Positions 10,835 to 39,960 of a stretch of 64,000 nt of DNA are shown one piece after another. Under the pieces are notes generated by a model that ran no database searches, was not told the origin of the DNA, and worked only from the letters and a program-made list of their open reading frames with translations. Within the stretch, counting starts at the first letter, position 1; each line of letters opens with the position of its first letter. The stretch is from NCBI GenBank assembly GCA_001818495.1, contig MHKS01000005.1:250038-314037 (forward strand), written 5' to 3'. The position numbers and the translations under genes were made by a program. The DNA comes from Candidatus Komeilibacteria bacterium RIFOXYD1_FULL_37_29 (GTDB lineage: Bacteria; Patescibacteriota; Patescibacteriia; UBA1558; GWA2-36-10).

Positions 10835-11731
10835 ATGTTTGATGACTTAAAACAAGACAGTCCAATAAAATCAACTGCTCCCAATGGAGCGTCCAATACG
10901 AACAACTCGACAGTTCGTCAACCCCAAAGAGCGACTGGTATTGATGATATGTTTGATGATGTGGATCCGGTAGCTAGTGCAAGTAGCGGTGGACCAGTTG
11001 ATCCCAACAAACCTAGTGCTGTAAAGTCGGGTAAGATTAAGGTAGTTTCTCAAACCAACTTACCTACCAGCGCCCAGGCGGCTTCTCAGGTGGCTAGCTA
11101 TCCAGTTATACCACAGCCAGTTCGACCATCTAGCATGCCCACTATGTCACTAGATGATTCTATGGTTGTGACCGACGGAAGATCCAATGGCGTTATGAGA
11201 AAAATAATTATTACTTTTTTAGTCATTGTTCTTTTGGCCTTGGTCGGCGGGGGAGTTTATTATTTCTTTTTAAGAACTAATGGTTTGGACAATAACGCTC
11301 AGCCAAACGATAATGCCAATAATAATGTGGCTAATGAAAATAATAATCAAGTGGATGTATTTAATGAATCCGACCAAGAGCCGACAATCAATGAAGATGA
11401 ATTGGATGATGATTTTGATGGACTGAGCAATGGTTTAGAAAAGACCTATGGCACCAATCCTTTGGAAGTAGATAGTGATAATGACGGAGTTTTTGATCAA
11501 GATGAGGTCGAAACCCACAAGACTGATCCCTTAGCTGATGATAGTGATAGCGACGGACTTAGTGATTATCAGGAAATTATTATTTATAAGTCCGATCCCA
11601 ATGATCCCGATACAGATGGAGACACATTTTTAGACGGTGTGGAGGTGCTAAATGGTTATAATCCACTAGGTGCTGGTAAATTGGAAGAGGCTACTTCTAC
11701 TAGTAATTTAAATACTAACAATACTTTATAA
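10835..11731 (+). CDS. single-pass membrane protein with N-rich linker and thrombospondin type-3-like (DxDxDGxxDxxE) Ca-binding repeats
   Basis: 298-aa ORF starting 22 nt after the giant gene. TM segment IIITFLVIVLLALVGGGVYYFFL. Repeats DSDNDGVFDQDE / DDSDSDGLSDYQE / DPDTDGDTFLDGVE. Confidence 0.75.
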   Translation: MFDDLKQDSPIKSTAPNGASNTNNSTVRQPQRATGIDDMFDDVDPVASASSGGPVDPNKPSAVKSGKIKVVSQTNLPTSAQAASQVASYPVIPQPVRPSSMPTMSLDDSMVVTDGRSNGVMRKIIITFLVIVLLALVGGGVYYFFLRTNGLDNNAQPNDNANNNVANENNNQVDVFNESDQEPTINEDELDDDFDGLSNGLEKTYGTNPLEVDSDNDGVFDQDEVETHKTDPLADDSDSDGLSDYQEIIIYKSDPNDPDTDGDTFLDGVEVLNGYNPLGAGKLEEATSTSNLNTNNTL

Positions 11732-11735
11732 AATT

Positions 11736-12854
11736 ATGTTTAATGATCAGAATGTAAATAATCATTCGAGTGGCTTTGGTCGGGGCGATAATAACGGTTT
11801 TGGTAAAAAAAATAGCGCAGCTTTGGGCAATATTTTAGGTGTACAGAAAGAGGTGGTTAATGTCCATGCTATGCCATCCAAGTTTGTCACCACCACTCAG
11901 CGAACCGGCCATTTAACTACTGCTAGTGGAGCCAAAGGATCGGGGCGCAAATTATTATTAATTACTATTTCCTTGATTTTAGTAATCATTGTAGTAATTG
12001 GGGGAATTATGTATTTTGTTAATGGTGGAAAAGAAAAACTCAATTTTAGCCAACTATTTGGTCAAAATTTAGATTCTAATAATGTAGCCAATGAAAGTGT
12101 CAATCAGAATATAAATGACAACACAAACGACAACACCAATGAAGTAGTCAATGACAATACCAATCAGAATATAAACGACAACACCAACGACAACACCAAT
12201 GAAGTAGTCAATGACAATACCAATCAGAATATAAATGACAACACAAACGACAACACCAACGAAACTCCAAATTATCAGCCCGCTGTTGATACAGATGGAG
12301 ACGGTTTAACTACTGAAGAAGAATTGGTCTTTGGCACCAATCCGGATTTGGAGGACACCGATAAAGATGGTTATAAAGATGGACAAGAAATAACTAGTCT
12401 TTATAATCCTTTAGTACCAGCCCAAGATTTATTTTCTTCGGGCCTAGTTAAAAAATTTATTTCCTCCAATTATGGTTATACATTTTTTAGACCCAACACT
12501 TGGACAGCCAAGGTGGTCGGTACAGTTAGTAATATTATTATTTTGCCGGATTCTGAATCTGGTGAATCATTTAATATTGAAATAACGACTAATCCAGAAA
12601 ATAAAACACTTAGCCAGTTATTAGATGAAACGGGTAGTGTTTTTGTTGACGCTGAAAATTATAGTCTAGCTGGAGCACCGGCCTATCGTTCATTAGATGG
12701 CCGTAAAGTATCGGCTATCAGTAACGGTTTTTTATTCGTTATTTCTCACAATGTTAGTGGTTTAGGTGAAGTTAGTTTTGATAATATTTTTGAGATGATG
12801 TTAAAAAGTTTTACCTGGACGGAAATAGAGAGCCCCGATGTCAATGAATTATAA
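11736..12854 (+). CDS. paralogous single-pass membrane protein with NDNTN tandem repeats, TSP3-like repeats and a C-terminal globular domain
   Basis: 372-aa ORF with the same architecture as the preceding gene: disordered N-terminus, TM LLLITISLILVIIVVIGGIMYFV, N/D/T-rich repeats, DTDGDGLTTEEE / DTDKDGYKDGQE. Confidence 0.75.
   Translation: MFNDQNVNNHSSGFGRGDNNGFGKKNSAALGNILGVQKEVVNVHAMPSKFVTTTQRTGHLTTASGAKGSGRKLLLITISLILVIIVVIGGIMYFVNGGKEKLNFSQLFGQNLDSNNVANESVNQNINDNTNDNTNEVVNDNTNQNINDNTNDNTNEVVNDNTNQNINDNTNDNTNETPNYQPAVDTDGDGLTTEEELVFGTNPDLEDTDKDGYKDGQEITSLYNPLVPAQDLFSSGLVKKFISSNYGYTFFRPNTWTAKVVGTVSNIIILPDSESGESFNIEITTNPENKTLSQLLDETGSVFVDAENYSLAGAPAYRSLDGRKVSAISNGFLFVISHNVSGLGEVSFDNIFEMMLKSFTWTEIESPDVNEL
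12101..12259. repeat. 60-bp tandem repeat, about 2.7 copies, in-frame (NQNINDNTNDNTNEVVNDNT)
   Basis: Units start at 12101, 12161 and 12221 (caatcagaatataaa[t/c]gacaaca[c/]...). Units differ at only a few positions. Confidence 0.9.
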
Positions 12855-19596: not shown

Positions 19597-19686
19597 GGAG
19601 AGGTGCTAGAGTGGTTGAATAGGGTGCTCTCGAAAAGCACTAGTCCTGAAAGGGACTCGGGGGTTCAAATCCCTCCCTCTCCGCCA
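19597..19686 (+). tRNA. tRNA-Ser (anticodon CGA), class II with long variable arm, CCA encoded
   Basis: Hand-folded cloverleaf. Acceptor GGAGAGG/CCTCTCC; D stem CTA/TAG; anticodon stem GTGCT/AGCAC with loop CTCGAAA; variable-arm hairpin AGTCC/GGACT; T arm GGGGG-TTCAAAT-CCCTC; discriminator G plus CCA. Confidence 0.9.
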
Positions 19687-20051
19687 TCCTTCGCTAAAGC
19701 TACGGAATGACTAGCCATATGTTATATTATACTTACATTTTATTAAGCTCAAAATCTCATATTTTTTATTTTGGTTCAACGAATAATTTAAAAAATAGAT
19801 TGGAGCTGCATAATAGCGGCAAGGTAACATCAACTAAATCGCATATACCTTGGAAATTAGTTTGGTATTGTGTATTTGAAACGGAAAAACAGGCAAGAGA
19901 TTTTGAGCTTTATTTAAAAACAGGGTCAGGAAAATCTTTTGCTTATAAAAGACTTATTTCCGTGGCTTTAGAGAAGGATTTCAGGGAAGGGAGAATAGGT
20001 AGTCCGAAGCGGAAGCCTTAGCTTTTGCGAAGGATACCTCCCTCTCCGCCA
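19687..20051 (+). mobile_element. 365-bp GIY-YIG gene cassette bounded by 14-bp inverted repeats and a 15-bp duplication of the tRNA-Ser 3' end
   Basis: cctccctctccgcca occurs at 19672-19686 (tRNA 3' end) and again at 20037-20051. IR-L tccttcgctaaagc is at 19687-19700 and IR-R gcttttgcgaagga at 20021-20034 (1 mismatch). Confidence 0.55.
19707..20021 (+). CDS. small GIY-YIG (URI-domain) nuclease family protein
   Basis: YYTYILL...IFYFGSTNNLKNRLELHN...E...K matches the GIY...YIG...R...E layout of COG2827-type proteins. The start may instead be the ATG at 19719. Confidence 0.8.
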   Translation: MTSHMLYYTYILLSSKSHIFYFGSTNNLKNRLELHNSGKVTSTKSHIPWKLVWYCVFETEKQARDFELYLKTGSGKSFAYKRLISVALEKDFREGRIGSPKRKP

Positions 20052-20190: not shown

Positions 20191-22020
20191 ATGTCTAAAA
20201 AAATTGATTACGACAACTGGTCAAAAGATGAGATAATCAAGGAGATTAGGCGAATCAAAGAAACTACATACGGACTTGTGTGGCATCGCGACTTACCTGA
20301 GGAAAAAATTGATATTCTTATAAACCCAGATGCTCGGACTCCAAATGAAATGTTCCCTAACGAAATGGCGGGCAAGCCATTTCCAGTTTTGAAAGAGGCA
20401 AAAACAAAAACAATTGAGACTGATAAAAATAAGCCGACAAATATTTTGATTGAGGGTGATAATTATCATTCTCTTGCCGTTTTGAATTTTACTCATCAAG
20501 AAGCAATTGATTTGATTTACATTGATCCGCCTTACAATACTGGCCACAACGATTTTGTTTACAATGATAAAATTAAAAGCGGTTATGTTGTTAAAGATGA
20601 TCCATTTAGGCATAGTAAATGGATTTCTTTCATGGAAAAAAGGTTAAAACTCGCAAAAAATTTATTGAAATCGTCGGGTGTTATTTTTATTAGTATTGAC
20701 GACAATGAATTTGCTCCATTAAAAATGCTGTGTGACGAGATTTTTGATGAAAGTAATTTCATCTCTATGTTGTCAATTGAAAATAATCCTAAGGGACGGA
20801 AAAACTCCGATTTTATATCTATTTGTAATGATTATTGTCTTATATACGCTAAAGACAAAGGTAAAAGTTATTTTGTTGAAAATATTCCCAAACAAGCTGA
20901 CGACTTAACGATTGATGATAATGGAGACTATGTACACAATAGCGGCAAACGGGTCCTTGTTGGAGAAAATAAATTTAATCCGCTTGTAGAAGATTTTGAA
21001 TCAGCTAAGCATTATAGTGTTTATTACAATCAGACTGATAATAAAATTAAAATAGAGGTGGAAAAAAATATTCACGAGGCAAACAAAGATTTATTAAAAA
21101 ACGGATATAAAAGATACTATTCTTATTTTGGAGACAGATTTGTCTTGAATACTTATACAAAATCAAAAATCATAGAGCTTTTCGAAGATGAGGCTCTCGA
21201 ATTCAAAAATGGGAGTATATATGAAAAAAATTTCAGCACAACAATTAGACTAAAAAGTCTTGTTATCAATAAAAAATATGAGGCAGTAATAAATAATGAA
21301 AAAGCAGAATATCAAATAGATGTTAAAACGACTTCAGCGAAGACTGAATTAAAGGATATTTTCAACACTGACCAAATTCCATTTGATAACCCCAAGAATA
21401 TTGGTTTGATAAAATTATTGGTAACATTATTTGAAAATAAATCAATAACTATTTTAGATTTTTTTGCAGGATCGGGAACGACCGGGCATGCAGTCCTTGG
21501 TCAAAATAAAGAAGATGGAGGAAATCGACAATTTATTCTGTGCACGAATAATGAAAATAATATATGCACTGATATCTGCTATCCCCGTCTTGGAAAAGTT
21601 ATAAAGGGATATAAAAATTCAAGAAATGAAAAAATTGATGGTTTGGGTGGAAACCTGAGATATTTTACTGCTTATGACTTTGTAGAAGCTAAGGAAACAG
21701 ATAGAAACAAAAGAAAACTAGTAAACCAATCAACAGAAATGCTTTGCATTAAGGAAAATGCTTTTGAGCTTGTGCAAGAAGTTGAAGATTATAAAATCTT
21801 CAAGAATCATGATAAATATTTGGGAATTATTTTTCATGAAGATTCTATATCGGACTATGTCAAAGCAATAAAAAAGATAAAAGGACACTTTAATACTTAT
21901 ACATTTTCAATGACGGATGATCCTCACAAAGAGGAATTTACTGATGTTGCGGACAAAGTAACTCTTTGTGCAATTCCAGAAATGATTTTGAAAGTATATC
22001 ATGAGATTTTCAAGGAATAA
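20191..22020 (+). CDS. mod: Type III restriction-modification DNA methyltransferase (Mod, beta-class N6A/N4C)
   Basis: 609 aa. Catalytic IDPPYNTG sits near the N-terminus (nt 20524-20535) and the SAM-binding FFAGSGTTGHAV near the C-terminus, with a variable middle region (TRD). Followed directly by a res-like helicase-nuclease gene. Confidence 0.85.
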   Translation: MSKKIDYDNWSKDEIIKEIRRIKETTYGLVWHRDLPEEKIDILINPDARTPNEMFPNEMAGKPFPVLKEAKTKTIETDKNKPTNILIEGDNYHSLAVLNFTHQEAIDLIYIDPPYNTGHNDFVYNDKIKSGYVVKDDPFRHSKWISFMEKRLKLAKNLLKSSGVIFISIDDNEFAPLKMLCDEIFDESNFISMLSIENNPKGRKNSDFISICNDYCLIYAKDKGKSYFVENIPKQADDLTIDDNGDYVHNSGKRVLVGENKFNPLVEDFESAKHYSVYYNQTDNKIKIEVEKNIHEANKDLLKNGYKRYYSYFGDRFVLNTYTKSKIIELFEDEALEFKNGSIYEKNFSTTIRLKSLVINKKYEAVINNEKAEYQIDVKTTSAKTELKDIFNTDQIPFDNPKNIGLIKLLVTLFENKSITILDFFAGSGTTGHAVLGQNKEDGGNRQFILCTNNENNICTDICYPRLGKVIKGYKNSRNEKIDGLGGNLRYFTAYDFVEAKETDRNKRKLVNQSTEMLCIKENAFELVQEVEDYKIFKNHDKYLGIIFHEDSISDYVKAIKKIKGHFNTYTFSMTDDPHKEEFTDVADKVTLCAIPEMILKVYHEIFKE

Positions 22021-22024
22021 TTAT

Positions 22025-24262
22025 ATGTCATGGATTAATTTTAAAAATTATCAAGAAACTGCAATCGATGAAATACGCGACAAGATTAATGCCCTGCTCA
22101 AAAAAGAGGGTAATAGACTTTGCGTATTCAAAGCTCCGACTGGTTCGGGGAAAACTTTAATGATGGCGGAATGGATGATGAGGTTTTGTGACCCATATTC
22201 GCGAATTGATGGGAAAACTTTTTCTTTTGTATGGATAGCAGTAAATAAATTACATGATCAAAGCCATGACAGTTTAAAAAAGTTTTATGAGCTCAAAGGA
22301 GCGGGGCTTCGTTGTTCATATTTTCACGAACTTGAGGATAGAAAAATAAAACAGAACGAGATTTTATTTTTGAATTGGGCAAGTATCAATAATGAAGACA
22401 AGATTATTGTTCGCGCGAATGAAAGAGATAATAATCTCTCAACAATAATTGATCGGACCAAAGATGCCAGTCGGACAATTATTTTGATTATCGACGAAAG
22501 CCACCATACCGCAAAAAGTAAAAATTCAAAGGCTTTAATAAAAAATATTGACCCTAAAATTACGATCGAGGTTTCTGCTACACCAGAAATTTTTGATTTT
22601 GATGAGCGGGTAACCATTGATATTGAGGATGTACGAAGCGAGGAAATGATAAAGAAAGAAATTGTAGTGAACCCTGGCTTCAAAAATTACACAGTTGATC
22701 CAAAAAAGAACGATCAAACAGCAGACGAATTAATCTTGAAGTCTGCTTTGCAAAAAAGGATTGATTTGCGAAAAAAATTAGAAAAAGATGGTTCAAATGT
22801 CAATCCCTTATTACTTATTCAATTACCGGATACAAAAAAAGGAGTTCCTGATAAAAAAGAGGAGATTGAAACACTTCTTGCTAAATTTGGCTATACAACA
22901 AAAAATGGAAAGTTGGCTGTCTATCTTTCTGAAAAAGATAACAAAATAAATCTTGCTAATATTGAGAAAAATGAAAACGAAGTGGAGGTAATGATGTTCA
23001 AGCAAGCGATTGCACTTGGTTGGGATTGTCCAAGAGCTACAATTCTTGTGCTTTTCCGTCAATGGAAAGATGAAACGATAACATTCTCAATCCAAACATT
23101 GGGAAGAATCATGCGTATGCCTGAGCAAAAACATTATAAAGATCAAGAGTTGAATATTGCTTATCTTTATACTAGTTTACAAGACATTAATACTCGTATT
23201 TTGAAAGGTGCTTCGTCGGGAATAAAATCTCTTACGAGTTATCGCAATGAGAAATATAAAAATATTGACCTAATTTCATATCACTCAAAACGATTCCGTG
23301 AGGAAACTCGTTTGTCTTCTGATTTTGTGAAAATTTTTATCGAAGCCGCTAAAAAAACAAATTTAAAAGATGTTTCGCTAAAAGTCGGGATTGTGAAAAC
23401 AACAATGATCAAAGATGGACGCGTGGAAAATGCGGATAAAGAAATAACAAAGATTGAAAGTGATACTTTTTCTATACCCAAAACAGAGACGGAGCTGCAA
23501 TATACTTTTGATATGTTTGTGCTTGATAATCTTGATCCGTTTGAACATGAAGCCCGTTCTATAAAACGCATAAACGATTCAATTTATACTTTCTTTGGCG
23601 CACGACGCAAAGAAGATGAATGGCCTAAAATACAAGCCACGATACTTTCGTATGAAAAGAATCGCCAAGCTGTAATTGATGCTATTAATCTAGCAAAAGA
23701 TTTATATAAAACCGAAGTTGGAAAAGGCAAAAAAGAACTGATACAAAATGATGAGCCGTGGAATGTGCCAGAAGCTATTAATTTTGATCCGTCATTTGTA
23801 GAGCAAAATTATAAAAAATCTATAATGCAACCATATTACGCTCGTTCTCGGGATGGAGAAAACGGACGATTGTTTGAGGACAGTGAAATTGAAAATGATT
23901 TTATTAAATACCTAGAAAAAGCACAGAAAGTTGTTTGGTGGTTCAGAAATGGGAAACAAGACGGATCATTTTTTGCTGTCCCGCACATTGAACACGGACA
24001 AGAAAAGCCGTTTTATGTTGATTTTATAGTTATGATGAAAAATGGAACTGTTGGGCTTTTTGATACAAAATCAGGATATACTGCCGAACTAGCAAAATCT
24101 CGCTCTGATGGACTTGTAAAATATATTAATGAGCAGAAAAAGAAAAAAATTACTGGCGGAATTGTGAGATACGAAAAGAAAAGTTGGCTATATTTTACTA
24201 ACAAAGAATATAAATATAATCCGAATGATATAAAGGATTGGGAATTTTTGGATTTGAATTAA
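22025..24262 (+). CDS. res: Type III restriction enzyme Res subunit (SF2 helicase + PD-(D/E)xK nuclease)
   Basis: Helicase motifs FKAPTGSGKT, IIDESHH and QTLGRIMR. C-terminal nuclease-like FYVDFIV...GLFDTKSG. The ATG at 22025 has an aagga SD-like element; the alternative start at 22001 overlaps mod. Confidence 0.85.
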   Translation: MSWINFKNYQETAIDEIRDKINALLKKEGNRLCVFKAPTGSGKTLMMAEWMMRFCDPYSRIDGKTFSFVWIAVNKLHDQSHDSLKKFYELKGAGLRCSYFHELEDRKIKQNEILFLNWASINNEDKIIVRANERDNNLSTIIDRTKDASRTIILIIDESHHTAKSKNSKALIKNIDPKITIEVSATPEIFDFDERVTIDIEDVRSEEMIKKEIVVNPGFKNYTVDPKKNDQTADELILKSALQKRIDLRKKLEKDGSNVNPLLLIQLPDTKKGVPDKKEEIETLLAKFGYTTKNGKLAVYLSEKDNKINLANIEKNENEVEVMMFKQAIALGWDCPRATILVLFRQWKDETITFSIQTLGRIMRMPEQKHYKDQELNIAYLYTSLQDINTRILKGASSGIKSLTSYRNEKYKNIDLISYHSKRFREETRLSSDFVKIFIEAAKKTNLKDVSLKVGIVKTTMIKDGRVENADKEITKIESDTFSIPKTETELQYTFDMFVLDNLDPFEHEARSIKRINDSIYTFFGARRKEDEWPKIQATILSYEKNRQAVIDAINLAKDLYKTEVGKGKKELIQNDEPWNVPEAINFDPSFVEQNYKKSIMQPYYARSRDGENGRLFEDSEIENDFIKYLEKAQKVVWWFRNGKQDGSFFAVPHIEHGQEKPFYVDFIVMMKNGTVGLFDTKSGYTAELAKSRSDGLVKYINEQKKKKITGGIVRYEKKSWLYFTNKEYKYNPNDIKDWEFLDLN

Positions 24263-24265
24263 ATT

Positions 24266-25450
24266 ATGGCATTAGAATCAGAAAAATTGGAAGAAAAAAT
24301 AGTTGATAATTATTTTACTGATACTCTATATAGTAGTCGGGAATTTAAGGGTGGAGTAGGTAAATTTTTTACAATAGTATCTCAGGATGAAAATGATATC
24401 CCAAATGTAGTTGATGTTGAGCATTCGTATCCTATACGCAATAAAATAAAGACAACGCTGACATTTATCAAAAAAGAAAACGAAATTACAGCCATTTCCT
24501 TTAAGCGTTTTAAATATTATAAAAAAGAACATTGGGTTGAACAACCAGAAGAACAGATTACTTTTTCATACAGTCTTTTTAAAAAAATTATTGGGTATTT
24601 ACAGTTACTATCAGAATTAAATTTGTCGGCTATTAGTGAGCGAAGAATTGCTTTAGCCGATGACACATTACCGAATATTGACGATGAAACAAAAAAGAAG
24701 ATTAAAACATTGCTTTTACGCAAAGATGGGCAAAAAATTATTGAGGAATTAATAAATAGCGGAATAATTACATCAACCGATATTGTAAATATCGGGTATC
24801 GAAAAAAACAACTTGATGTTTTTGAGAAGCTCCTGACACAACCCGATTATTTTGCAACCTATATAACTGAAAGTAAAATTACAGATACTCGTCATGAGTC
24901 TGTTTGGCAACATTTCTTCCATTCTAATGATTGGATTTTTGGATATGGACTAGATTATCGCTTTCTTGGCATCCTGCAAAAAGAAGCTCATATTTCAAAT
25001 ACAGACGTCGCAGGAAAAGGGGCTGTTATAAATGATTTTCTACTCGGGTGCAATAAATTCACCGTTTTGGTTGAATTAAAAAAACACGACACACCATTAT
25101 TTGGAAAAGACAAAAACCGGTCAAACTCTTGGACACTTTCAGATGATTTAATATCTGGTCTATCTCAAATATTAGAGCAAAAAGCTAGTTGGCAGGTTTC
25201 GGCCGAGACAAATGCAAGTGGAAATTTTGACGATAAGGGTAATTTGATAAAACAAAAAACTATCGATCCAAAAAGTATCTTAGTTATCGGATCAACAAAG
25301 CAATTTGATGGTGATGATAAAGAAAATCAAATTAAAGCAAAAACCTTTGAACTTTTTAGACGAGATTCAAGAAATATAGAAATTCTTACTTATGACGAAC
25401 TGTATGAGAGAGCGAAGTTTATTGTTGAACATAAACAGAAAGACAACTAG
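24266..25450 (+). CDS. DUF4263 / Shedu (SduA)-like PD-(D/E)xK nuclease-domain protein
   Basis: 394 aa. The C-terminal half reads WQHFFHSNDWIFGYGLDY...VINDFLLGC..FTVLVELKKHDTPLF...ILVIG...FELFRRDSRNIEILTYDELYERAKF, the layout I associate with DUF4263. Starts 4 nt after the res stop. Confidence 0.6.
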   Translation: MALESEKLEEKIVDNYFTDTLYSSREFKGGVGKFFTIVSQDENDIPNVVDVEHSYPIRNKIKTTLTFIKKENEITAISFKRFKYYKKEHWVEQPEEQITFSYSLFKKIIGYLQLLSELNLSAISERRIALADDTLPNIDDETKKKIKTLLLRKDGQKIIEELINSGIITSTDIVNIGYRKKQLDVFEKLLTQPDYFATYITESKITDTRHESVWQHFFHSNDWIFGYGLDYRFLGILQKEAHISNTDVAGKGAVINDFLLGCNKFTVLVELKKHDTPLFGKDKNRSNSWTLSDDLISGLSQILEQKASWQVSAETNASGNFDDKGNLIKQKTIDPKSILVIGSTKQFDGDDKENQIKAKTFELFRRDSRNIEILTYDELYERAKFIVEHKQKDN

Positions 25451-25793: not shown

Positions 25794-26387
25794 ATGGATC
25801 AACAAACAATCAATACATACAACAGGATGTCACAAGAGTATGATGATGAAACAGCTGATTTTTGGGAGCGATTTCCTCGAACATTTCTTGATAAATTTAT
25901 TAAGCTATCCGGTAATAAAATACTTGATGTTGGGAGCGGACCAGGTAGAGATGGTTTGATACTTCAACAGGCCGGTAAAAATGTTGTCTGTGTGGATGCT
26001 TCTGCAGCAATGGTGAAATTGTCTTCAGACAGAGGTTTAAACTCTATAGTAGCCAGTTTCGACAATTTACCATTTGAAAATAATTCATTTGACGGCGTAT
26101 GGTCATATACTGCTCTTTTACATATTCCCAAAAAATCTATCGATACCCCTCTTCAAGAGATTTTTCGTATTATCAAACCTTCAGGTATTTTTGCTCTTGG
26201 TCTGATTGAAGGGGACACAGAAGGATACAAAGAAAGCTCTGAAGTGACTATGCCTCGTTGGTTTAGTTTCTATCAGAAAGACGAAGTTGAAAATTTATGC
26301 CAAAAGCACGGATTTGAGCTGGTTTACTTTGAGACTTTTAAACCAGGGTCCAAGCCCTATTTGAATTTTATTTTTCGAAAAATATAA
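25794..26387 (+). CDS. class I SAM-dependent methyltransferase
   Basis: 197 aa with motif I ILDVGSGPGRDG and post-I/II motifs (VVCVDAS, FDGVWSYTALLHI). Confidence 0.8.
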   Translation: MDQQTINTYNRMSQEYDDETADFWERFPRTFLDKFIKLSGNKILDVGSGPGRDGLILQQAGKNVVCVDASAAMVKLSSDRGLNSIVASFDNLPFENNSFDGVWSYTALLHIPKKSIDTPLQEIFRIIKPSGIFALGLIEGDTEGYKESSEVTMPRWFSFYQKDEVENLCQKHGFELVYFETFKPGSKPYLNFIFRKI

Positions 26388-26416: not shown

Positions 26417-26666
26417 TTTTCACTGTCTTTTCAGGCAGTTTTTTGGTATAATCAAAGCATTAATTAATAAAAATATTATGATTGACGAAGAAATAAAGCA
26501 AATTATTCAGGAAAATAAGGACACTTTGGCTAATATTGATAAAAGGATTGGTCGGATTGAGAAAAATTTTATTTGGAGTTCAATTTTTGGTTTTATAAAG
26601 ATTGTTATTATTGTAGCACCGATTGTTTTTGGTATTATTTATTTTACGCCATTTTTGAAAGATTTA
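26417..26666 (+). repeat. left copy of a ~250-bp direct repeat (promoter + 5' part of a small TM-protein gene)
   Basis: Aligns with 33400-33649 at a fixed offset of 6,983 nt. I count about 9 mismatches, and the first ~104 nt are identical. Contains tggtataat (26444-26452). Confidence 0.9.
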
Positions 26667-26690
26667 AATAAATTGGGTATTATTACATAA
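26478..26690 (+). CDS. small TM protein, truncated paralog of the 33461-33811 gene
   Basis: 70 aa. MIDEEIKQIIQENK..NIDKRIGRIEKNFIWSSIFGF.KIVII is nearly identical to the N-terminus of the downstream paralog and diverges after FTPFLKD. Confidence 0.6.
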   Translation: MIDEEIKQIIQENKDTLANIDKRIGRIEKNFIWSSIFGFIKIVIIVAPIVFGIIYFTPFLKDLNKLGIIT

Positions 26691-26707: not shown

Positions 26708-28426
26708 ATGAAAAAGTCAAAAGTCATATTAGGGATTACTGCCTTTAATCATGATTCTTCGGCGTGCTTAATTTATCAAGGTAGAGTAATTGCATTTTGT
26801 GAGGAGGAAAGATTCAATGGCATAAAACATACCGGAGATTTTCCGATAAAATCAATTTTATTTTGTTTAGAAAAAGCTGGTTTGTCATTAAATGATGTGA
26901 CTGATGTAGCTTTTTATTTTAATATTAAAAAATGTTTATTGAGTTATATAAAGAACAATAATCCACTCTATTATATTATTCATCCATCTTTATTTAAGAG
27001 GAAAAGATTTTATTATGAAATTATTTGGTTATTTAGTTTTATAAACAAAATTAATTCAATTAAAAAACTCCTTAATAATTATAAGATAAAGATTACTTAT
27101 GTAGATCATCATATGGCGCACGCTTGGTATGGGTATTTTTCTTCAAATTTTAAAAATTGCACGGTAGTTTCTAATGACAGCGTAGGCGAGAGTGTGAGTA
27201 GTTTAGCCGTAAAGATACAGAGAGAAGATAAAAAAATTATTTTTGGTAAGACATTCAGTCAAACAGACCCTCACTCTATTGGGTATTTGTATGGTGCTAT
27301 AACTGAATTTTTAGGATTCAAAAGAGGTCAAGACGAAGGAAAGGTTATGGCTATGGCGGCTTTAGGGAAAGATAAATATGTAAAATATTTTGATGACTTG
27401 ATTAGATATTTACCTAATGGGGAATTTAGAATAAGTAAGGAGTTGATTTCCTTACGTAATTTTCAGCCAAAATCACAAAGATTAAGCAATGATTTTTTAA
27501 AAAAATTTGGATATTATCGTCAACCCCAAGAACCATTTATCCAAAAGCATTATGATATTGCTTATGCAATACAAGGGGTAACGGAAAAAATTTTATATCA
27601 CCAATTAAAATATATTAATGATGATAATATAGTCATTACTGGTGGTATTGCTCAAAATAGTGTAGCCAACGGGAAACTCAACAATTTTTTTTATAAAAGA
27701 AATATATTTATTCCTCCGATTCCTAATGATGCCGGGTGTGGTATTGGCGCGGCGCTTTCTTTATATTATAAGTATTATGAAGATTTACCAGAGTTTGTGG
27801 ATACTGCGTTTTTAGGCCCAGAATTTTCTGATCATAAAATCATTAAAACATTAGAAAATAATAAAATAAATTTTAAAATTATAAAAAATCAGACGGAATT
27901 CATTATTAATGAGCTTTTGAAAAATAAGATTATCGCTATATATAGAAATGAGATGGAGTGTGGTCCTAGGGCATTAGGTAATAGGAGTATAATAGCCAAT
28001 CCAATTGATCCGGCGATGAAGAATTACATCAATGAAAAAATAAAACACCGTGAATTTTTTCAGCCATACGGCGGGTTGATTATTGATAAAAATGTTAAAG
28101 AAGTATTTGATTATAAGAATAAAAATATTTCCGGACCATATATGTCTTTTGTTTATCCAATTAAAGATAAATGGTTAAAAATGTTTCCATCTTTGGTTCA
28201 TTTTGATAAAACTTCTAGAATTCAAATAATAAAGAAGGAACAAAATTTTTTATATAGTCTCTTGGAAGAATTTTATAAAAAAACAGGTGTCCCCGTAATT
28301 ATAAATACTTCCCTTAATTTAAGAGGGCAGCCTATGGCAAGAAGCCATCAAGATGCTTTAAACACATTTTATAATTCGGGGATTCATTATATTTTATTTA
28401 ATAACAGTATTCTAGTTTCAAAATGA
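26708..28426 (+). CDS. NodU/CmcH/TobZ-family O-carbamoyltransferase
   Basis: 572 aa. N-terminal ILGITAFNHDSSACLIYQGRVIAFCEEERFNGIKH, VDHHMAHAWYGYF, and C-terminal domain ECGPRALGNRSIIANP. Confidence 0.85.
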   Translation: MKKSKVILGITAFNHDSSACLIYQGRVIAFCEEERFNGIKHTGDFPIKSILFCLEKAGLSLNDVTDVAFYFNIKKCLLSYIKNNNPLYYIIHPSLFKRKRFYYEIIWLFSFINKINSIKKLLNNYKIKITYVDHHMAHAWYGYFSSNFKNCTVVSNDSVGESVSSLAVKIQREDKKIIFGKTFSQTDPHSIGYLYGAITEFLGFKRGQDEGKVMAMAALGKDKYVKYFDDLIRYLPNGEFRISKELISLRNFQPKSQRLSNDFLKKFGYYRQPQEPFIQKHYDIAYAIQGVTEKILYHQLKYINDDNIVITGGIAQNSVANGKLNNFFYKRNIFIPPIPNDAGCGIGAALSLYYKYYEDLPEFVDTAFLGPEFSDHKIIKTLENNKINFKIIKNQTEFIINELLKNKIIAIYRNEMECGPRALGNRSIIANPIDPAMKNYINEKIKHREFFQPYGGLIIDKNVKEVFDYKNKNISGPYMSFVYPIKDKWLKMFPSLVHFDKTSRIQIIKKEQNFLYSLLEEFYKKTGVPVIINTSLNLRGQPMARSHQDALNTFYNSGIHYILFNNSILVSK

Positions 28427-29247
28427 TTAAAGATTTTCAAAAGATAGAGTTTTTAAAATCACTTTACAGTGATAAAGACTTAATATCGTTTCGTGGCAAT
28501 TTTTTAAAAAATAATTCCAACCGTAAATTCTCATTAAGATCTTTTATTATTAAACTTTTGCCGATGCTAAAGGATAAAAAAATATTAGACATTGGTTGCG
28601 GAGACGGGTCATTCCTCAATAAATTACATACGGTATATCCTCAAAATAAATATTTTGGTTTGGATGTAGTAGATAATGCTAAATGCCATAAATTGAAATT
28701 TCTTGACTACAAAATTTATGATGGTAAATCCAGGGTTTATTATACGGAAAAATTTGATGTGATATTTTGTATGCACACTGTTTATCATATCGAAGATTTA
28801 TTCACTTTTTTTACAACGATGAAAGACTATTTAAAGCCCCATGGCATTATTATCATTACTACGAAGTCTAAATTGACTTTTCCTAAAATAGAATCAATCT
28901 TTTTAAAGATTGTCGGTAAGCTTGACTTAAAAAAATATTTAAAAATTAGCAAACACAGAGAGGAATCAAAATTTTGTTTGGAGAACGGATTAAACAGATT
29001 AAAAAAACACTTCGCTAGGCGGTCATTTAGTATAAATGAGTATGTTTTAGAAACGCAGGTTTTTGTTAATGACAAAAAAGATCTTTTGAAATATGTTTTT
29101 TCTACAAATAGATATAATATTTTGAAAGATACTTTAAACAAAAAAATTGTTGAAAAATATACAAAACTTTGGTTTGAAGAAATTGATAAAGATCAGATAT
29201 TCATTGATAAATATACGGAGGCTGTTTATTTAATAAAAAAATTATGA
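28423..29247 (+). CDS. class I SAM-dependent methyltransferase
   Basis: 274 aa with ILDIGCGDGSF motif I, YFGLDVV and FDVIFCMHTVYHIEDL. ATGA overlap with the carbamoyltransferase stop. Confidence 0.75.
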   Translation: MIKDFQKIEFLKSLYSDKDLISFRGNFLKNNSNRKFSLRSFIIKLLPMLKDKKILDIGCGDGSFLNKLHTVYPQNKYFGLDVVDNAKCHKLKFLDYKIYDGKSRVYYTEKFDVIFCMHTVYHIEDLFTFFTTMKDYLKPHGIIIITTKSKLTFPKIESIFLKIVGKLDLKKYLKISKHREESKFCLENGLNRLKKHFARRSFSINEYVLETQVFVNDKKDLLKYVFSTNRYNILKDTLNKKIVEKYTKLWFEEIDKDQIFIDKYTEAVYLIKKL

Positions 29248-30311
29248 AAATAGGTTATAGTTGCTGGGGATTTTTGGGTAACGGAATAAAGGATACACCG
29301 GATGGCGGGAGGAGTCACCGGTTGACTTTATTGAAAGAATTAATCCGTCAAGGAGTTGAAATAGTAATGTTGCAAAAGAATAGAGACCTCATTGAAGGCA
29401 ATCAAAGTTTTTCACGAAAGAATTTAATATTTAGTGGTGAGTTACCGGAAATAGATGCTCTATTTGTAGAATATAGATGGAAGATAGTAGGAAGGAATTA
29501 TAAGGTGAGAAAAAATAATCCAGCCTATACTCCGGATTTCGATAGACAGAGTGAATTAATTAATTTTTATAATAATAGAAATATTCCTATTATTATTTGG
29601 GATAAAGATCAGAAACTTGGTAAGAATGAAATAAAAGGCATTAAAAATTTGATTGTATTTGAACCTGCTTTAAAGCCAAGGTTTAATAGAAAAAGTTTAT
29701 TGTTTCCGATGGACAATCATAGAACAAAAATTGTCCTCAAATTGATAGGTAAGTATAAAAAAAATATTAAGAGCTCCAAGTTGTGTTACATTGGAAATCA
29801 ATATGAGAGAGATGGTAGTTTTAAAGAGTTTATTAATAAGCCAGCCAGTATGCTCGATACCAAAACACCAGTATTTGGTAATTGGAACAAATATCCAGAA
29901 AAGTATAAGCAAAATATGCAAAAATTTTCCAATGTTGAATTTAAAGGTAGGGTGCAGTTTAATAAAGTTAATAATATTTATAAAAAATCTTTTTCTACAG
30001 TTCTTATCGCGCCACGGAGATATTATATCACGGGTCATTTTACACAAAGATTATTTGAGGCAATGTGGGGCTTATGCATTCCTTTTACCCCGCAGCAATA
30101 TCATGGATGGCAGGGTTTAATAATAAAAGATTTTATAATTAGATCTGGCAAAGATTTAATAAATAAGATAAAAAAATTAGAAACAACGCCCGATTCAGAT
30201 ATAAGGAGAATGTTTGATAGACAGTTTGAGAAACTTAATTTATTTAATGCCAGTAAACAAGCCAGTATAATTATAAACGAAATCAATAATCATAATGGTA
30301 GACTCGGGTAA
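29244..30311 (+). CDS. hypothetical protein, possibly GT-B-fold (CgeB/DUF3880-like) glycosyltransferase
   Basis: 355 aa. The C-terminal half (YIGNQYERD...VEFKGRV...YKKSFSTVLIAPRRYYITGHFTQRLFEAMWGLCIPF) resembles the donor-binding half of GT-B enzymes. The assignment is by eye only. ATGA overlap with the upstream gene. Confidence 0.3.
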   Translation: MKIGYSCWGFLGNGIKDTPDGGRSHRLTLLKELIRQGVEIVMLQKNRDLIEGNQSFSRKNLIFSGELPEIDALFVEYRWKIVGRNYKVRKNNPAYTPDFDRQSELINFYNNRNIPIIIWDKDQKLGKNEIKGIKNLIVFEPALKPRFNRKSLLFPMDNHRTKIVLKLIGKYKKNIKSSKLCYIGNQYERDGSFKEFINKPASMLDTKTPVFGNWNKYPEKYKQNMQKFSNVEFKGRVQFNKVNNIYKKSFSTVLIAPRRYYITGHFTQRLFEAMWGLCIPFTPQQYHGWQGLIIKDFIIRSGKDLINKIKKLETTPDSDIRRMFDRQFEKLNLFNASKQASIIINEINNHNGRLG

Positions 30312-31074
30312 TAAAAATAAATCTTTAGAAATTGTAATTGATTCTAAACACTATATTAAAAAAAGATATTCTGATATCCAACGTTTTTTTTGTGAATTAA
30401 AATATCTTAAATATTTTAAAGATGAAGATATCAATGTTCCTTTTATATATAAATTTGATAAAATCCAAAAAACAATAATAATAGATAAAATAAAGGGGAA
30501 AATCGGCGATTCATTAAATAATAGAGACACAAAACTATGCATTGATGTGCTTGTCAAAATAATTTTTATTTTTGGTTTGGAAAAGAAAAATAATAATGAA
30601 ATTGATAGGTATATTTCAAAAGTCAGGTCAAATATAATATGGTGGTGTGAAAATAATAATTATATAGTAGAAAAAGAAAAATTAAATATTTTACTTCAAA
30701 AGTTAAGAAAAGTGTGTTATATATCTTTATTCAAAGATGCCAAACCATCTAATTGGATTTTTCAAAAAGATAAAATATACGCAATAGACTTTGATTATGT
30801 AAAAAAATCATTTTTTTTAGCAGATTTAGCACAACTTTTAAGTTATATTTCATTAAGGAAAAAAATAAGTTATATTTTCTTTGTAAATTATTATCTAAAG
30901 CAAATATTCCCAAAAATGAAGGATTATGATAAATTTTATATACCTTTTAAATTAGCGCTTGTTAATTCCAACATTGCTTCTGAACTTCACAGAGAGAATT
31001 TAGGAGCCTATGTAAAAAGGGGTTTTGCCAAACAAAACAGGTTTATTTTGAGTGAATTTAAGATAATATTATAA
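30295..31074 (+). CDS. protein-kinase-like fold kinase (APH/Bud32/LPS-kinase-like)
   Basis: 259 aa. Catalytic-loop-like FKDAKPSNWIF followed by IYAIDFDYV (DFG-equivalent). Overlaps the upstream gene by 17 nt. Confidence 0.5.
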   Translation: MVDSGNKNKSLEIVIDSKHYIKKRYSDIQRFFCELKYLKYFKDEDINVPFIYKFDKIQKTIIIDKIKGKIGDSLNNRDTKLCIDVLVKIIFIFGLEKKNNNEIDRYISKVRSNIIWWCENNNYIVEKEKLNILLQKLRKVCYISLFKDAKPSNWIFQKDKIYAIDFDYVKKSFFLADLAQLLSYISLRKKISYIFFVNYYLKQIFPKMKDYDKFYIPFKLALVNSNIASELHRENLGAYVKRGFAKQNRFILSEFKIIL

Positions 31075-31955
31075 TGTCAATATCAATAACCGCCAAATCA
31101 GCTAATGAAGCATTCATTAAAATAGCTGATAAATTGTATAATAATCCGGAATATGTTTCTAGTCCTCGAAGCTGGGAAACAAGGGAGTTATTAGGGGCTT
31201 TTATTGTTATCAACAATCCCTATGATCGTTTTATAAATAATGTTCATAGGAAGATTTCTTTAAAGTATCTTATTGGTGAATGGTTATGGTATGAGCGAGG
31301 ATCCAATTCTTTAAATGAAATTAATTATTATGCAAAATTTTGGAGCAGTATTTCGGATGATAAAATAACTGCCAATTCAGCTTATGGTCATAGAATTTTA
31401 GGGATCAATAAGTTCGTGATTATTAATCAATGGAAGTGGGCCAAACGGCAAATAATAAAAGATAAGGAAACAAGGAGAGCCATCATTTTTATTGGATTGC
31501 CAAGTGATATGAAAAACGAAACGAAAGATTTTCCTTGCACTATGTCACTCCAGTTTTTAATAAGAAATAATGAGTTACATTTAATTTGCAATATGAGGAG
31601 CAATGATTTAGTATTGGGTTTTACTTATGATGTAGCTACCTTTACTTTATATCAAGAAAAAATGTTGTTGGAGTTGAAAAAATATTATCCAAAATTAAAG
31701 ATAGGTAAATATTTTCATATGGTAGGCAGTTTACACGTATATAAGAAAAACTATGAGATGATAAAAAAAGTGATAAATGATCAGGACAATAATTTGAAAA
31801 TTACCATGCCTCGCATGGGTGATTTAAAAGAAATAAAAAAACTCCAGTATAACGAGAGTATTATAAGAGAAAATAAAAATAAAAAGTTTAAAAAAATTGA
31901 AGATAGATTCTGTATCTGGTGTCAGAATATTTTATTAAATAAAATTAAATACTAA
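31074..31955 (+). CDS. thymidylate synthase (ThyA) superfamily enzyme with Asp at the Asn177-equivalent position; candidate deoxycytidylate/cytidylate C5-hydroxymethylase or methylase
   Basis: Hand alignment to E. coli ThyA. GEWLWYERG ~ ELLWFLQG; TRRAIIF ~ SRRIIVSAW; FPCTMSLQF ~ APCHAFFQF (Cys codon 31536-31538); MRSNDLVLGFTYDVATF ~ QRSCDVFLGLPFNIASY (Asp codon 31629-31631 replaces Asn177); GSLHVY ~ GDTHLY. TAATG overlap with the upstream gene. Confidence 0.7.
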   Translation: MSISITAKSANEAFIKIADKLYNNPEYVSSPRSWETRELLGAFIVINNPYDRFINNVHRKISLKYLIGEWLWYERGSNSLNEINYYAKFWSSISDDKITANSAYGHRILGINKFVIINQWKWAKRQIIKDKETRRAIIFIGLPSDMKNETKDFPCTMSLQFLIRNNELHLICNMRSNDLVLGFTYDVATFTLYQEKMLLELKKYYPKLKIGKYFHMVGSLHVYKKNYEMIKKVINDQDNNLKITMPRMGDLKEIKKLQYNESIIRENKNKKFKKIEDRFCIWCQNILLNKIKY

Positions 31956-31956
31956 A

Positions 31957-32628
31957 ATGAAAGGCATAATTATAGACGGAGTTGTTTCTTCTGGTAAAAC
32001 GTCTATCTTAAAACATCTTCATCGTCTGATTTCAGAACAAAACCCTACTTCAACCAAGTTTTTTATTAGTGAACACTATACTGAGAGAATGTTGGAGCAT
32101 TTGAAAGATAAAGGTGAATTAGACGGTAGCCATATAAAAGCCCACGTTGATCAGTTAATCCATACTTTAGCTTCTTTTCAGTCTATGTTGGATAATTCTA
32201 AGTTTCGTGATAACCCGAAAGGAGCAGATTTGTTTGTTACTTTAGAAAGATTTATTCTAACCCATTTGTCCTCAGTGGACATAGGAGATAAATATAGTCT
32301 TGATGAAGTCAAAGCTCATTTTGAAATTTTAAACAAGCTAGGAGTAAAACAAGTAGCTTTAATAATTCCCGAATCAAGACTAAAAGAAAATATCATGTCG
32401 ACTCTGCAATATCGAAATGACGCCTGGTTGGATTATTTGTATTCTAGGGGTGGAGAAAAAGAAATTATAGAATATTATATCAATTGGCAGAATAATTTTT
32501 TAGAGTATATCAACAAATTTAAAGATATAATAGATACCTTAGTCATCGAAGTAAAAGATCAAGACTATCTTCAATATAGTAATACTATTTTTAATAGTTG
32601 TATTAAATCAGATATTCTCTCAAAATAA
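31957..32628 (+). CDS. P-loop kinase, (deoxy)nucleoside/nucleotide-kinase-like
   Basis: 223 aa. Walker A IIIDGVVSSGKTS at the N-terminus and a possible ERS-like LERF motif. Starts 2 nt after the ThyA-like stop. Confidence 0.4.
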   Translation: MKGIIIDGVVSSGKTSILKHLHRLISEQNPTSTKFFISEHYTERMLEHLKDKGELDGSHIKAHVDQLIHTLASFQSMLDNSKFRDNPKGADLFVTLERFILTHLSSVDIGDKYSLDEVKAHFEILNKLGVKQVALIIPESRLKENIMSTLQYRNDAWLDYLYSRGGEKEIIEYYINWQNNFLEYINKFKDIIDTLVIEVKDQDYLQYSNTIFNSCIKSDILSK

Positions 32629-33114
32629 ATGTTTTTTAATTTTATGTTTTTTATACTTTACCCCGGCTAAATCAAAGAGTTTTTTAGAAACGATAAAATT
32701 ATTCGCATCTTTGTCTGATCTATCATCTTGATAGATTATATTTTTTATGCCGCTTTGGATAATAATTTTTGCACACTCATTGCAGGGGAAGAGTAAACAG
32801 TAAAGTTTTGCATTTTCGGCTGATTGATTAGTATTTAAAATGGCATTTACTTCAGCGTGAACAACATACGGATATTTTGTATTTAAGATATTTTTTTTGT
32901 TATGCCCGTAATTATTACTCCAAGAAAAATGCCCTTCCTTAATACCTCTAGGCCAACCGTTGTAGCCAACTCCTAAAACAACATTATTTTTATCAACCAC
33001 GACAGCTCCGGTTTGAGTTGATGGGTCTTTTGATCTCTGAGCTATAACTTGAGCCATTAGCATAAATGTTTCATCCCACGATAAATAGTTTTTTCTAGCT
33101 TTTATATTATCCAT
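32620..33114 (-). CDS. dCMP deaminase (ComEB/Cd family)
   Basis: 164 aa. Zinc motifs VHAEVNAI and PCNECAKII, with N-terminal SWDETFMLMAQVIAQRSKDPSTQTGAVVV. Convergent with the operon, with a 9-nt 3' overlap. Confidence 0.9.
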   Translation of the reverse strand: MDNIKARKNYLSWDETFMLMAQVIAQRSKDPSTQTGAVVVDKNNVVLGVGYNGWPRGIKEGHFSWSNNYGHNKKNILNTKYPYVVHAEVNAILNTNQSAENAKLYCLLFPCNECAKIIIQSGIKNIIYQDDRSDKDANNFIVSKKLFDLAGVKYKKHKIKKHLF

Positions 33115-33399: not shown

Positions 33400-33649
33400 T
33401 TTTCACTGTCTTTTCAGGCAGTTTTTTGGTATAATCAAAGCATTAATTAATAAAAATATTATGATTGACGAAGAAATAAAGCAAATTATTCAGGAAAATA
33501 AGGAAACTTTAGCTAATATTGATAAAAGAATTGGTCGGATTGAGAAAAATTTTATTTGGAGTTCAATTTTTGGTTTTGTAAAGATTGTTATTATTTTAGG
33601 GCCGATTATTTTTGGTATTATTTATTTTACGCCATTTTTAAAAGATTTT
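33400..33649 (+). repeat. right copy of the ~250-bp direct repeat
   Basis: See the left copy. Contains tggtataat at 33427-33435 and the ATG at 33461. Confidence 0.9.
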
Positions 33650-39381: not shown

Positions 39382-39960
39382 ATGAATTTTAAAGAGGAAA
39401 AAACATTTGTGATGATCAAGCCGGACGGTGTCCGCAAGAATCTGATTGGCGAAATTATTGCTCGTTTTGAACAACGCGATTTAAAAATAGTAGCTTTGGA
39501 AATGTTTCAGCCAACTGTTGCCCAGATTGATGAGCATTATCCCAAGGATAAGGCTTGGATCGCTCGCTTGGGTCAAAAAACTTTAAGTACTTATGAAAAA
39601 TACGGAGTTGATCCGATTAAAGAGCTGGGTACTGACAATGATTTTGAAATTGGTCAGATGGTCCGCAAGTGGTTGGTTGATTATATGACCTCTGCTCCTT
39701 TGGTTAGAATGGTGGTCCAAGGTATTCATGCGGTTGATATGGTTCGTAAAATTTGCGGTGTCACTATTCCCAATATGGCTGACATGGGTACTATTCGTGG
39801 TGATTTTTCCTCTGATTCTCCTTCAGTAGCTAATAGTGAAAAAAGAGCAGTAATGAATTTGATCCATGCGTCTGAAACTCCGCAAGAAGCTGAACACGAA
39901 ATGAAACATTGGTTTGGAAGCAGAAAGGTTATATTCAATTACGAGCGTTACCAAGATTAA
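39382..39960 (+). CDS. ndk: nucleoside diphosphate kinase (long form)
   Basis: KTFVMIKPDGVRKNLIGEIIARFEQRDLKIVALEM, RGDFS, and NLIHASE (catalytic His). Confidence 0.9.
   Translation: MNFKEEKTFVMIKPDGVRKNLIGEIIARFEQRDLKIVALEMFQPTVAQIDEHYPKDKAWIARLGQKTLSTYEKYGVDPIKELGTDNDFEIGQMVRKWLVDYMTSAPLVRMVVQGIHAVDMVRKICGVTIPNMADMGTIRGDFSSDSPSVANSEKRAVMNLIHASETPQEAEHEMKHWFGSRKVIFNYERYQD

Follow-up and report, generated by a model that had tools for sequence, protein, structure and literature searches.

A seven-gene cassette bounded by direct repeats

We analysed a 64,000-nt stretch of genomic DNA (the window) from Candidatus Komeilibacteria bacterium RIFOXYD1_FULL_37_29, a groundwater member of the candidate phyla radiation (CPR; contig MHKS01000005.1, positions 250,038 to 314,037). 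It contains a cassette of seven genes built around a ThyA-like protein, here named ThyL, with the sequence signature of a cytosine C5-hydroxymethylase. The seven open reading frames (ORFs) were present at the coordinates given in an initial annotation of this DNA, and the overlaps and domain calls that it had listed all held in ORF, junction and Pfam checks. Domains were called from Pfam, NCBIfam and PHROG scans; three cassette proteins had no match above a curated cut-off and were assigned as a GT-B protein, a protein-kinase-like (PKL) kinase and a thymidylate-kinase-like nucleoside monophosphate (NMP) kinase. The cassette and its boundaries are as follows.

26417..26665, plus strand: left copy of a direct repeat, 249 nt (repeat search and alignment)
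26708..28426, plus strand: NodU/CmcH/TobZ-family O-carbamoyltransferase (CT), 572 amino acids (PF02543 1e-41, PF16861 4e-54)
28423..29247, plus strand: class I S-adenosylmethionine (SAM)-dependent methyltransferase (MT), 274 amino acids (Methyltransf_23/31/11/12/25 matches)
29244..30311, plus strand: GT-B fold glycosyltransferase (GT) of an uncharacterised "CgeB/GT1-like" family, 355 amino acids
30295..31074, plus strand: PKL/APH-family kinase, 259 amino acids (weak APH/Bud32 matches and motifs)
31074..31955, plus strand: ThyL, ThyA-fold cytosine C5-hydroxymethylase, predicted to be dCMP-specific, 293 amino acids (PF00303 5e-22 and residues)
31957..32628, plus strand: P-loop (d)NMP-kinase-like protein, 223 amino acids (Walker A GVVSSGKT, residues 8-15; LERF, residues 96-99)
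32620..33114, minus strand: dCMP deaminase, convergent, 164 amino acids (PF00383 2.4e-23; phrog_174 6.7e-39)
33400..33648, plus strand: right copy of the direct repeat, 249 nt (repeat search and alignment)

The plus-strand genes are tightly packed, with ATGA overlaps between CT and MT (28423-28426) and between MT and GT (29244-29247), a 17-nt overlap of the GT and PKL kinase genes (30295-30311), a TAATG junction between the PKL kinase and ThyL genes (31072-31076), and a one-base gap between the ThyL and P-loop kinase genes (31955/31957). The convergent deaminase gene overlaps the P-loop kinase gene, the last on the plus strand, by 9 nt. The GC content of the cluster is 23-31%, against 36% for the window.

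The two repeat copies are 96% identical, lie 6983 nt apart and enclose exactly the seven genes, so the module is an inserted cassette. The repeat unit holds a terminator-like hairpin (26422-26439 in the left copy) and a promoter-like region, together with ~62 codons from the start of a gene for a small membrane protein. The right copy supplies the promoter and 5' end of the intact gene (ATG at 33461, extending to 33811), while the left copy holds a truncated 70-aa ORF (26478-26690) that duplicates the 5' end of this gene. This arrangement implies insertion of the cassette with target duplication and would allow its excision by recombination. The deaminase gene lies inside the repeats; a type III restriction-modification (R-M) system, a Shedu gene and an additional methyltransferase gene all lie outside. 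We read the seven genes as one horizontally acquired, mobile cassette. The operon recurs on several independent groundwater contigs, and pattern scans of metagenomes did not find an empty insertion site. The gene content of the window is cellular (ftsA, ftsZ, nrdR, prfB, ndk and a ribosomal protein gene) and not that of a viral genome.

ThyL has the signature of a dCMP hydroxymethylase

A PDB search with ThyL returned the CMP hydroxymethylase MilA as the best solved-structure match (1.5e-30), followed by T4 gp42 (1.3e-17) and canonical ThyA (~1e-13). The catalytic Cys lies in an FPC motif (residues 153-155). In E. coli ThyA numbering, cross-checked against the canonical ThyA of locus L014 and HMMER alignments, ThyL carries Cys146, Asp143 (L143D), Asp177 (N177D), Asp169, Arg126/Arg127 and Ser167. 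It has been documented that Asn177Asp denotes a cytosine substrate (PMC13326640, PMC8670742), that Leu143Asp/Glu yields a hydroxymethyl rather than a methyl product through water access, and that Asp169Asn is the mark of flavin-dependent 5-hydroxy-dCMP synthases (PMC13326640). Moreover, ribose preference goes with Lys133' and Ala176 (MilA, BcmA) and deoxyribose preference with Arg and Ser (ThyA, T4 gp42), and exchanging both residues in MilA (A176S/K133R) turns the enzyme to dCMP (PMC5175136). By these residues ThyL carries the signature of a dCMP hydroxymethylase, and Arg126/Ser167 predict dCMP as its substrate.

Two other assignments were rejected: a canonical thymidylate synthase on the active-site residues L143D and N177D, and a 5-hydroxy-dCMP (5hoC) synthase because Asp169 is kept. 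Nor do the Arg and Ser at the specificity positions form the signature of a MilA-type CMP enzyme. Asp143, Asp169, Asp177 and Arg126 are common to all 74 ThyL proteins encoded near a homologue of the cassette GT. Position 167 is Ser in 41 of them and Gly in 33, and the Lys/Ala pair of MilA type occurs in none (0/74).

ThyL relatives in isolated phages are at most 39% identical. Some ThyA-like homologues of ~500 amino acids (P0054, P0058, P0066 and P0093), many of them on ~50-kb contigs, have a thymidylate-kinase domain (PF02223) as fusion partner, and these fusions provide an independent tie between this hydroxymethylase clade and kinases of the thymidylate kinase (TMK) type.

The other cassette proteins

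CT contains the motifs HHMAH (residues 134-138) and NTSLN (533-537) and matches phrog_1601 at 1.7e-112. Among solved structures it matched PDB entry 7xb6 at 9e-66, of which no description was found in the searchable literature, and the antibiotic-tailoring enzymes GdmN, NovN and TobZ at 1e-50 to 1e-56. Its identity to the published phage 5-hydroxymethylcytosine (5hmC) carbamoyltransferase was 22% (E 7e-13), and transferases of isolated phages were at most 30% identical. On these comparisons small-molecule O-carbamoyltransferases are much nearer relatives of CT than is the phage 5hmC enzyme. MT has a motif I of LDIGCGDG (residues 55-62) and BioC/UbiG/CmoB-like matches below cutoff.

The N-terminal, acceptor domain is highly conserved across the GT family. 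BLASTP of GT against a T4 beta-glucosyltransferase sequence was not significant (E 0.09), and the resemblance between the two is at the level of the fold only. The PDB sequence search with GT gave no match, and no GT homologue was found in isolated phages. Orthologues of GT have isoelectric points of 5.1-10.0, with no conserved basic charge; charge and isoelectric point vary among the orthologues of both GT and CT and are no discriminating feature.

The PKL kinase has a catalytic loop DAKPSN (residues 148-153) and a Mg-binding DFD (165-167), both kept in the Streptomyces APH (PF01636) and Agrobacterium orthologues, and is by its motifs an intact kinase. The P-loop protein has an NMP-kinase fold nearest to thymidylate kinases, and the deaminase contains HAE (86-88) and PCNEC (110-114). 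Domain scans found no dCTPase/dUTPase (gp56 function) among the cassette genes and no MilB/BcmB-type N-glycosidase domain in the cassette or in the conserved accessory families; an aGPT-Pplase-like gene was not found either.

Distribution and conserved gene neighbourhood

The GT family proved the best marker of the cluster. A scan of one genome per species placed it in at least 306 species, for the most part actinomycetes such as Streptomyces, Kitasatospora and Micromonospora; further carriers are Agrobacterium and Rickettsiales, Bdellovibrionales, Acidimicrobiia, Solirubrobacterales and Anaerolineae metagenome-assembled genomes (MAGs). Thus, the initial suggestion that the system would be new to CPR-type bacteria missed its main reservoir, the actinomycetes, and the system is not CPR-specific.

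Neighbourhoods were counted within 10 kb of the GT gene in 80 sampled loci. CT was present in 76 and ThyL in 75-76 of the 80, and the core of ThyA-like protein, CT and GT occurred together in 75-76. MT (67/80), an APH kinase (65/80), an NDP-sugar epimerase (65/80) and a small P-loop kinase annotated as "topology modulation" or adenylate-kinase-like (69/80) were also frequent; this P-loop kinase is of an actinomycete type, and the CPR type comes in addition. Less constant neighbours were a histidine phosphatase (50/80), a second APH kinase (50/80), a 623-aa protein of no known function (36/80), a HAD phosphatase (35/80), a KdsB-type cytidylyltransferase (28/80), an AdoHcyase-like protein (22/80), a TPR regulator (~18-23 of 80) and a NUDIX protein (14/80). 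Unbiased ORF clustering of the 80 loci, in which naive ORF calling in high-GC DNA gave some spurious antisense clusters, revealed no conserved transporter, nuclease, helicase or DNA-binding partner. Gene order varies between phyla, and therefore the linkage has been selected rather than inherited by synteny. The proposal that hydroxymethylase, nucleotide kinase, GT-B protein, CT, MT and PKL kinase form one functional unit is borne out by the core co-occurrence, and CT, MT, GT and kinase genes were not confined to glycan loci; they were found, on the contrary, with nucleotide enzymes.

Other Patescibacteria repeat the order CT-MT-GT-kinase-[sulfotransferase]-ThyL-P-loop kinase, with identities of 40-60%. 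Sister CPR clusters carry, between the PKL kinase and ThyA-like genes, a PAPS-type sulfotransferase (PF13469) that is not encoded in the window, and in these lineages the cluster product is probably sulfated. Its positions in four sister loci are as follows.

L008, 4514-5674: sulfotransferase
L007, 8866-10008: sulfotransferase
L009, 6579-7676: sulfotransferase
L111, 11819-12961: sulfotransferase

Woesebacteria and Saccharibacteria have the dCMP deaminase gene behind ThyL in the same orientation, as does an 819-kb CPR contig, on which the deaminase gene overlaps the ThyL stop codon; same-strand, adjoining deaminases occur in loci L007/L018, L017 and L111. With its position inside the repeats, this co-directional or coupled placement supports the earlier assignment of the deaminase to the unit.

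Actinomycete clusters are larger, as in Streptomyces nigrescens (L012, CP114202.1, 4784-18343) and Kitasatospora setae (L110, AP010968.1, 6285-14353). Beyond the core, they encode phosphatases of the HAD and histidine families, an NDP-sugar epimerase, an AdoHcyase-like protein, a further APH kinase, LuxR/TPR regulators and MutT-like NUDIX proteins, the last confined to these versions. Their cytidylyltransferase is a true KdsB-type enzyme (CMP-Kdo synthetase family), which is unusual for a Gram-positive bacterium. The Agrobacterium tumefaciens version (L013, QSNR01000020.1, 5455-17223) comprises the core, two APH-like proteins, two unknown proteins and an adjacent ABC exporter. Agrocin 434 of Agrobacterium K84 is a disubstituted cytidine nucleoside and may have a link to this cluster. 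An Amoebophilaceae MAG (L014/L020, 9327-11062) has just the MT and GT genes, with neither CT nor a ThyA-like gene; a short epimerase-like gene (62 aa) adjoins the pair, which looks like what an endosymbiont has kept of a cluster in decay.

Genomic surroundings of the cassette

The following features lie to the left of the cassette.

19597-19686: tRNA-Ser(CGA), directly upstream of the low-GC stretch
20191-22020: Mod of the type III R-M system
22001-24262: Res of the type III R-M system
24266-25450: Shedu SduA (PADLOC SduA, E 1.7e-154)
25794-26387: additional class I methyltransferase, just outside the left repeat

The stretch 20191-25450, with the R-M and Shedu genes, is a defence island. The 3' 15 nt of the tRNA-Ser gene, CCTCCCTCTCCGCCA, recur 350 nt downstream at 20037-20051 and resemble an attachment site (att) left behind by integration; a search at the right edge of the low-GC island turned up no copy of the tRNA 3' end. 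The low-GC region has the look of a hotspot for integration. An R-M/Shedu island had been noted as sitting beside the unit, and it is indeed adjacent, but it is not part of the unit, which is a separate insertion between the 249-nt repeats. Because the cassette entered this hotspot-like region separately, the adjacency probably reflects shared location and not shared function.

Unrelated class I methyltransferases also lie just upstream of the cluster in loci L007, L009 and L111. BLAST comparison of the window methyltransferase with the L009 copy, the only one compared, showed no homology, and the recurrence may be coincidence or a loosely associated function. At the far left, a giant ORF of 3578 aa (77-10813) fills the first 10.8 kb of the window and is followed by proteins with bacterial TSP3 repeats (10835-12854).

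Proposed pathway

We consider it likely that the cassette makes a decorated 5-hydroxymethyl-(deoxy)cytidine nucleotide by hydroxymethylation, phosphorylation and tailoring, a chemistry shared by the two end points weighed first below. This is favoured because the hydroxymethylase signature is found in 74/74 GT-linked ThyL proteins, the kinase has an NMP-kinase fold, a P-loop kinase is near-universal, and the core co-occurs in nearly all sampled loci.

In the first step, to which the sequence signature points, ThyL would add a hydroxymethyl group to C5 of dCMP or, less likely, CMP. In the second, which is supported by the fold, the thymidylate-kinase-like P-loop kinase would convert the monophosphate to the diphosphate, and the housekeeping nucleoside diphosphate kinase encoded at 39382-39960 could then make the triphosphate. 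In the putative steps three to six, listed here in no particular order, GT would attach a sugar, most simply to the new 5-CH2OH, and CT, MT and the PKL kinase, joined by the sulfotransferase in sister CPR lineages, would decorate either this sugar or hydroxyls still free. For the dCMP deaminase, a role in balancing the dCMP/dUMP pool or in deaminating an intermediate is possible.

End point of the pathway

The initial annotation had placed a modified base in DNA beside a free metabolite; both hypotheses remain live, and neither was singled out. We lean slightly, and tentatively, towards a free tailored nucleoside or nucleotide, namely a secondary metabolite, an antimetabolite or a toxin. The lean arises because CT is closer to 7xb6, GdmN, NovN and TobZ than to the phage enzyme, and because an APH-type kinase and a BioC/UbiG-like MT are typical of small-molecule tailoring. 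Moreover, the actinomycete clusters add phosphatases, NUDIX, epimerase, AdoHcyase-like and KdsB-type enzymes and LuxR/TPR regulators, an ABC exporter follows the Agrobacterium version, and the core has no conserved nuclease, helicase or DNA-binding partner. The GT family lacks a conserved basic charge and a phage homologue, and the window cassette lacks a dCTPase, which also inclined us to this end point.

Several observations weigh against a free product. A nucleotide kinase steers the product towards nucleotides that polymerases can use, and a ThyA homologue with a dNMP kinase suffices to load a modified base into the DNA of E. coli (PMC13326640). There is no MilB/BcmB-type N-glycosidase, the usual next step of the known natural-product routes through hydroxymethylcytosine (hmC), genes for an exporter, a phosphatase or a regulator are absent from the CPR cassette, and most actinomycete clusters lack an exporter as well. 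The dCMP deaminase gene is translationally coupled to the ThyL gene in several CPR lineages, and the pairing of the two matches that on phage contigs with modified cytosine (PMC8670742).

The next contender is a cellular, phage-style hypermodification of DNA, which we regard as possible, though with less confidence than a free product: 5-hydroxymethyl-dCMP would be raised to the triphosphate and incorporated into the cell's own DNA, with decoration in DNA or at the nucleotide level, and the decorated base would protect from nucleases or act as a self-mark. The deoxy-type specificity residues of ThyL, the nearly constant nucleotide kinase and the coupled deaminase all speak for it, as do the loading of E. 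coli DNA by two enzymes alone and the CPR cassette's lack of an N-glycosidase, exporter or phosphatase; the MutT-like NUDIX and epimerase genes mirror phage pathways. However, to our knowledge no cellular organism uses pre-replicative hmC, and in the window cassette the missing dCTPase would make any replacement partial. APH-type kinases, BioC-like MTs, sulfotransferases and phosphatases are without precedent on DNA, CT falls outside the characterised 5hmC subfamily, no restriction or DNA-binding partner is conserved, and the route would be costly in actinomycete genomes of 70% GC. A mass-spectrometry survey of 85 bacterial species found no 5-hydroxymethyldeoxycytidine; it mentions no actinomycete, so this system lies outside its reach. 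We see a realistic chance, though smaller than even, that these bacteria swap part or all of their chromosomal cytosine for a glycosylated, carbamoylated, methylated, phosphorylated (or sulfated) 5-hydroxymethylcytosine.

We think it unlikely that the product serves in inducible antiviral defence or antagonism, as a modified dCTP analogue would if it blocked DNA synthesis of a phage (or of host or prey) by poisoning it, in the manner of viperin-type defence. Such a role would suit the defence-island neighbourhood, the occurrence in epibionts, predators and antibiotic producers, the sporadic spread in CPR, Rickettsiales, Bdellovibrionales and actinomycetes, which resembles horizontal transfer, the kinase acting to the diphosphate level and the missing exporter in most loci. 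Nevertheless, the PADLOC matches in the cassette were a generic MT domain (mad2) and a deaminase domain alone, the cassette was inserted separately from the R-M/Shedu genes, and no sensor or effector is evident; this role is purely conjectural.

A chance juxtaposition of glycan-tailoring and pyrimidine-housekeeping modules, with ThyL an ordinary thymidylate synthase, could draw on viral contigs that often carry carbamoyltransferases beside sugar epimerases without ThyA (the only setting recovered in a viral-contig scan with a carbamoyltransferase alignment) and on the Amoebophilaceae MAG, which keeps MT and GT alone with a canonical ThyA ~9 kb away, but it is effectively refuted by the 75-76/80 co-occurrence across phyla in rearranged orders, the translational coupling, the repeat-bounded cassette, and a ThyL with L143D and N177D that scores far under every curated ThyA cutoff.

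Significance

The known settings of cytosine C5-hydroxymethylases are phage DNA hypermodification and two nucleoside antibiotic pathways. In the present clusters, such an enzyme centres a conserved six-gene core in at least 306 bacterial species of several phyla, apparently undescribed. If the product enters DNA, pre-replicative pyrimidine hypermodification would no longer be a virus-only trait, and this would be the first cellular phage-style case, spread horizontally over CPR, Rickettsiales, Bdellovibrionales and hundreds of actinomycete species, with a bearing on sequencing, restriction biology and CPR physiology. If it is a free compound, the clusters would define a new and widespread family of natural products or antimetabolites derived from hydroxymethyl-(deoxy)cytidine, and their tailoring enzymes, also new, would be of use in nucleic-acid chemistry. 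Direct tests are feasible, since the minimal cluster occurs in strains that can be cultured, Kitasatospora setae KM-6054 among them.

Comparison with known systems

The initial annotation had matched the gene combination to no described system. It overlooked phage contigs with modified cytosine that encode a ThyA(Asp177) domain alongside those of a carbamoyltransferase and a dCMP deaminase (MetaGPA; Yang et al., eLife 2021, PMC8670742); the transferase of one such contig, once purified, carbamoylates the 5-CH2OH of 5hmC to give 5-carbamoyloxymethylcytosine, and accepts ssDNA, dsDNA, RNA and free 5hm(d)CTP (PMC8670742). The triad is thus already published for phages, and each enzyme class is known. 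What stood of the claim is the six-gene core: in the searchable literature, outside which most subscription journals lie, neither this cellular core nor the mobility of the cassette nor its spread over at least 306 species is described. The window likewise encodes a ThyA(D177), a two-domain NodU/TobZ-type CT and a dCMP deaminase, but on a cellular chromosome, without MazG and with a GT-B protein, an MT, a PKL kinase and an NMP kinase added; at 22% identity, its CT is not a close relative of the phage enzyme. Judged from sequence, the window system acts like the phage 5hmC system at the first step, yet is outside that lineage.

With the cytosine hypermodification of T4 and RB69, the cassette shares the logic of a ThyA-fold enzyme, a nucleotide kinase, a deaminase and a GT-B enzyme (PMC13326640), and the ThyL signature (L143D, N177D, D169) agrees with that of T4 gp42. 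Such phages use a gp42 hydroxymethylase or a 5hoC synthase together with the dNMP kinase gp1, the deaminase Cd and DNA glycosyltransferases. In contrast to these phages, it has no dCTPase (gp56) and no phage replication context, its GT lacks a phage sequence homologue, and it has extra enzymes for carbamoyl, methyl and phospho (in relatives, sulfo) tailoring. The P-loop kinase is TMK-like and would correspond to T4 gp1 in role.

MilA is the best structural match of ThyL, the actinomycete setting is also common to the MilA (mildiomycin) and BcmA pathways, and the bacimethrin (BcmA) pathway, like the window, pairs its hydroxymethylase with an MT and a kinase. However, the analogy drawn earlier with these pathways fails on the ribose-specificity residues, where ThyL proteins have Arg and Ser (or Gly) instead of Lys133 and Ala176, and on the N-glycosidase of MilB/BcmB type, which is not present; there is no ThiD-type kinase, and the window cluster has GT and CT instead. 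The thymidine route through 5-hydroxymethyldeoxyuridine (5-hmdU) DNA kinases does not fit either, with Asp and not Asn at position 177 and no aGPT-Pplase-like gene. Cytosine tailoring in albomycin biosynthesis involves the carbamoyltransferase AbmE, the methyltransferase AbmI and the kinase AbmG, and proceeds without a ThyA-fold enzyme or a GT, with modifications at N3/N4 of cytosine. The carbamoyl, methyl and phosphate decoration that we propose for the cassette, with sulfate added in relatives, would resemble sugar tailoring of the NodU/NodS/NodH type.

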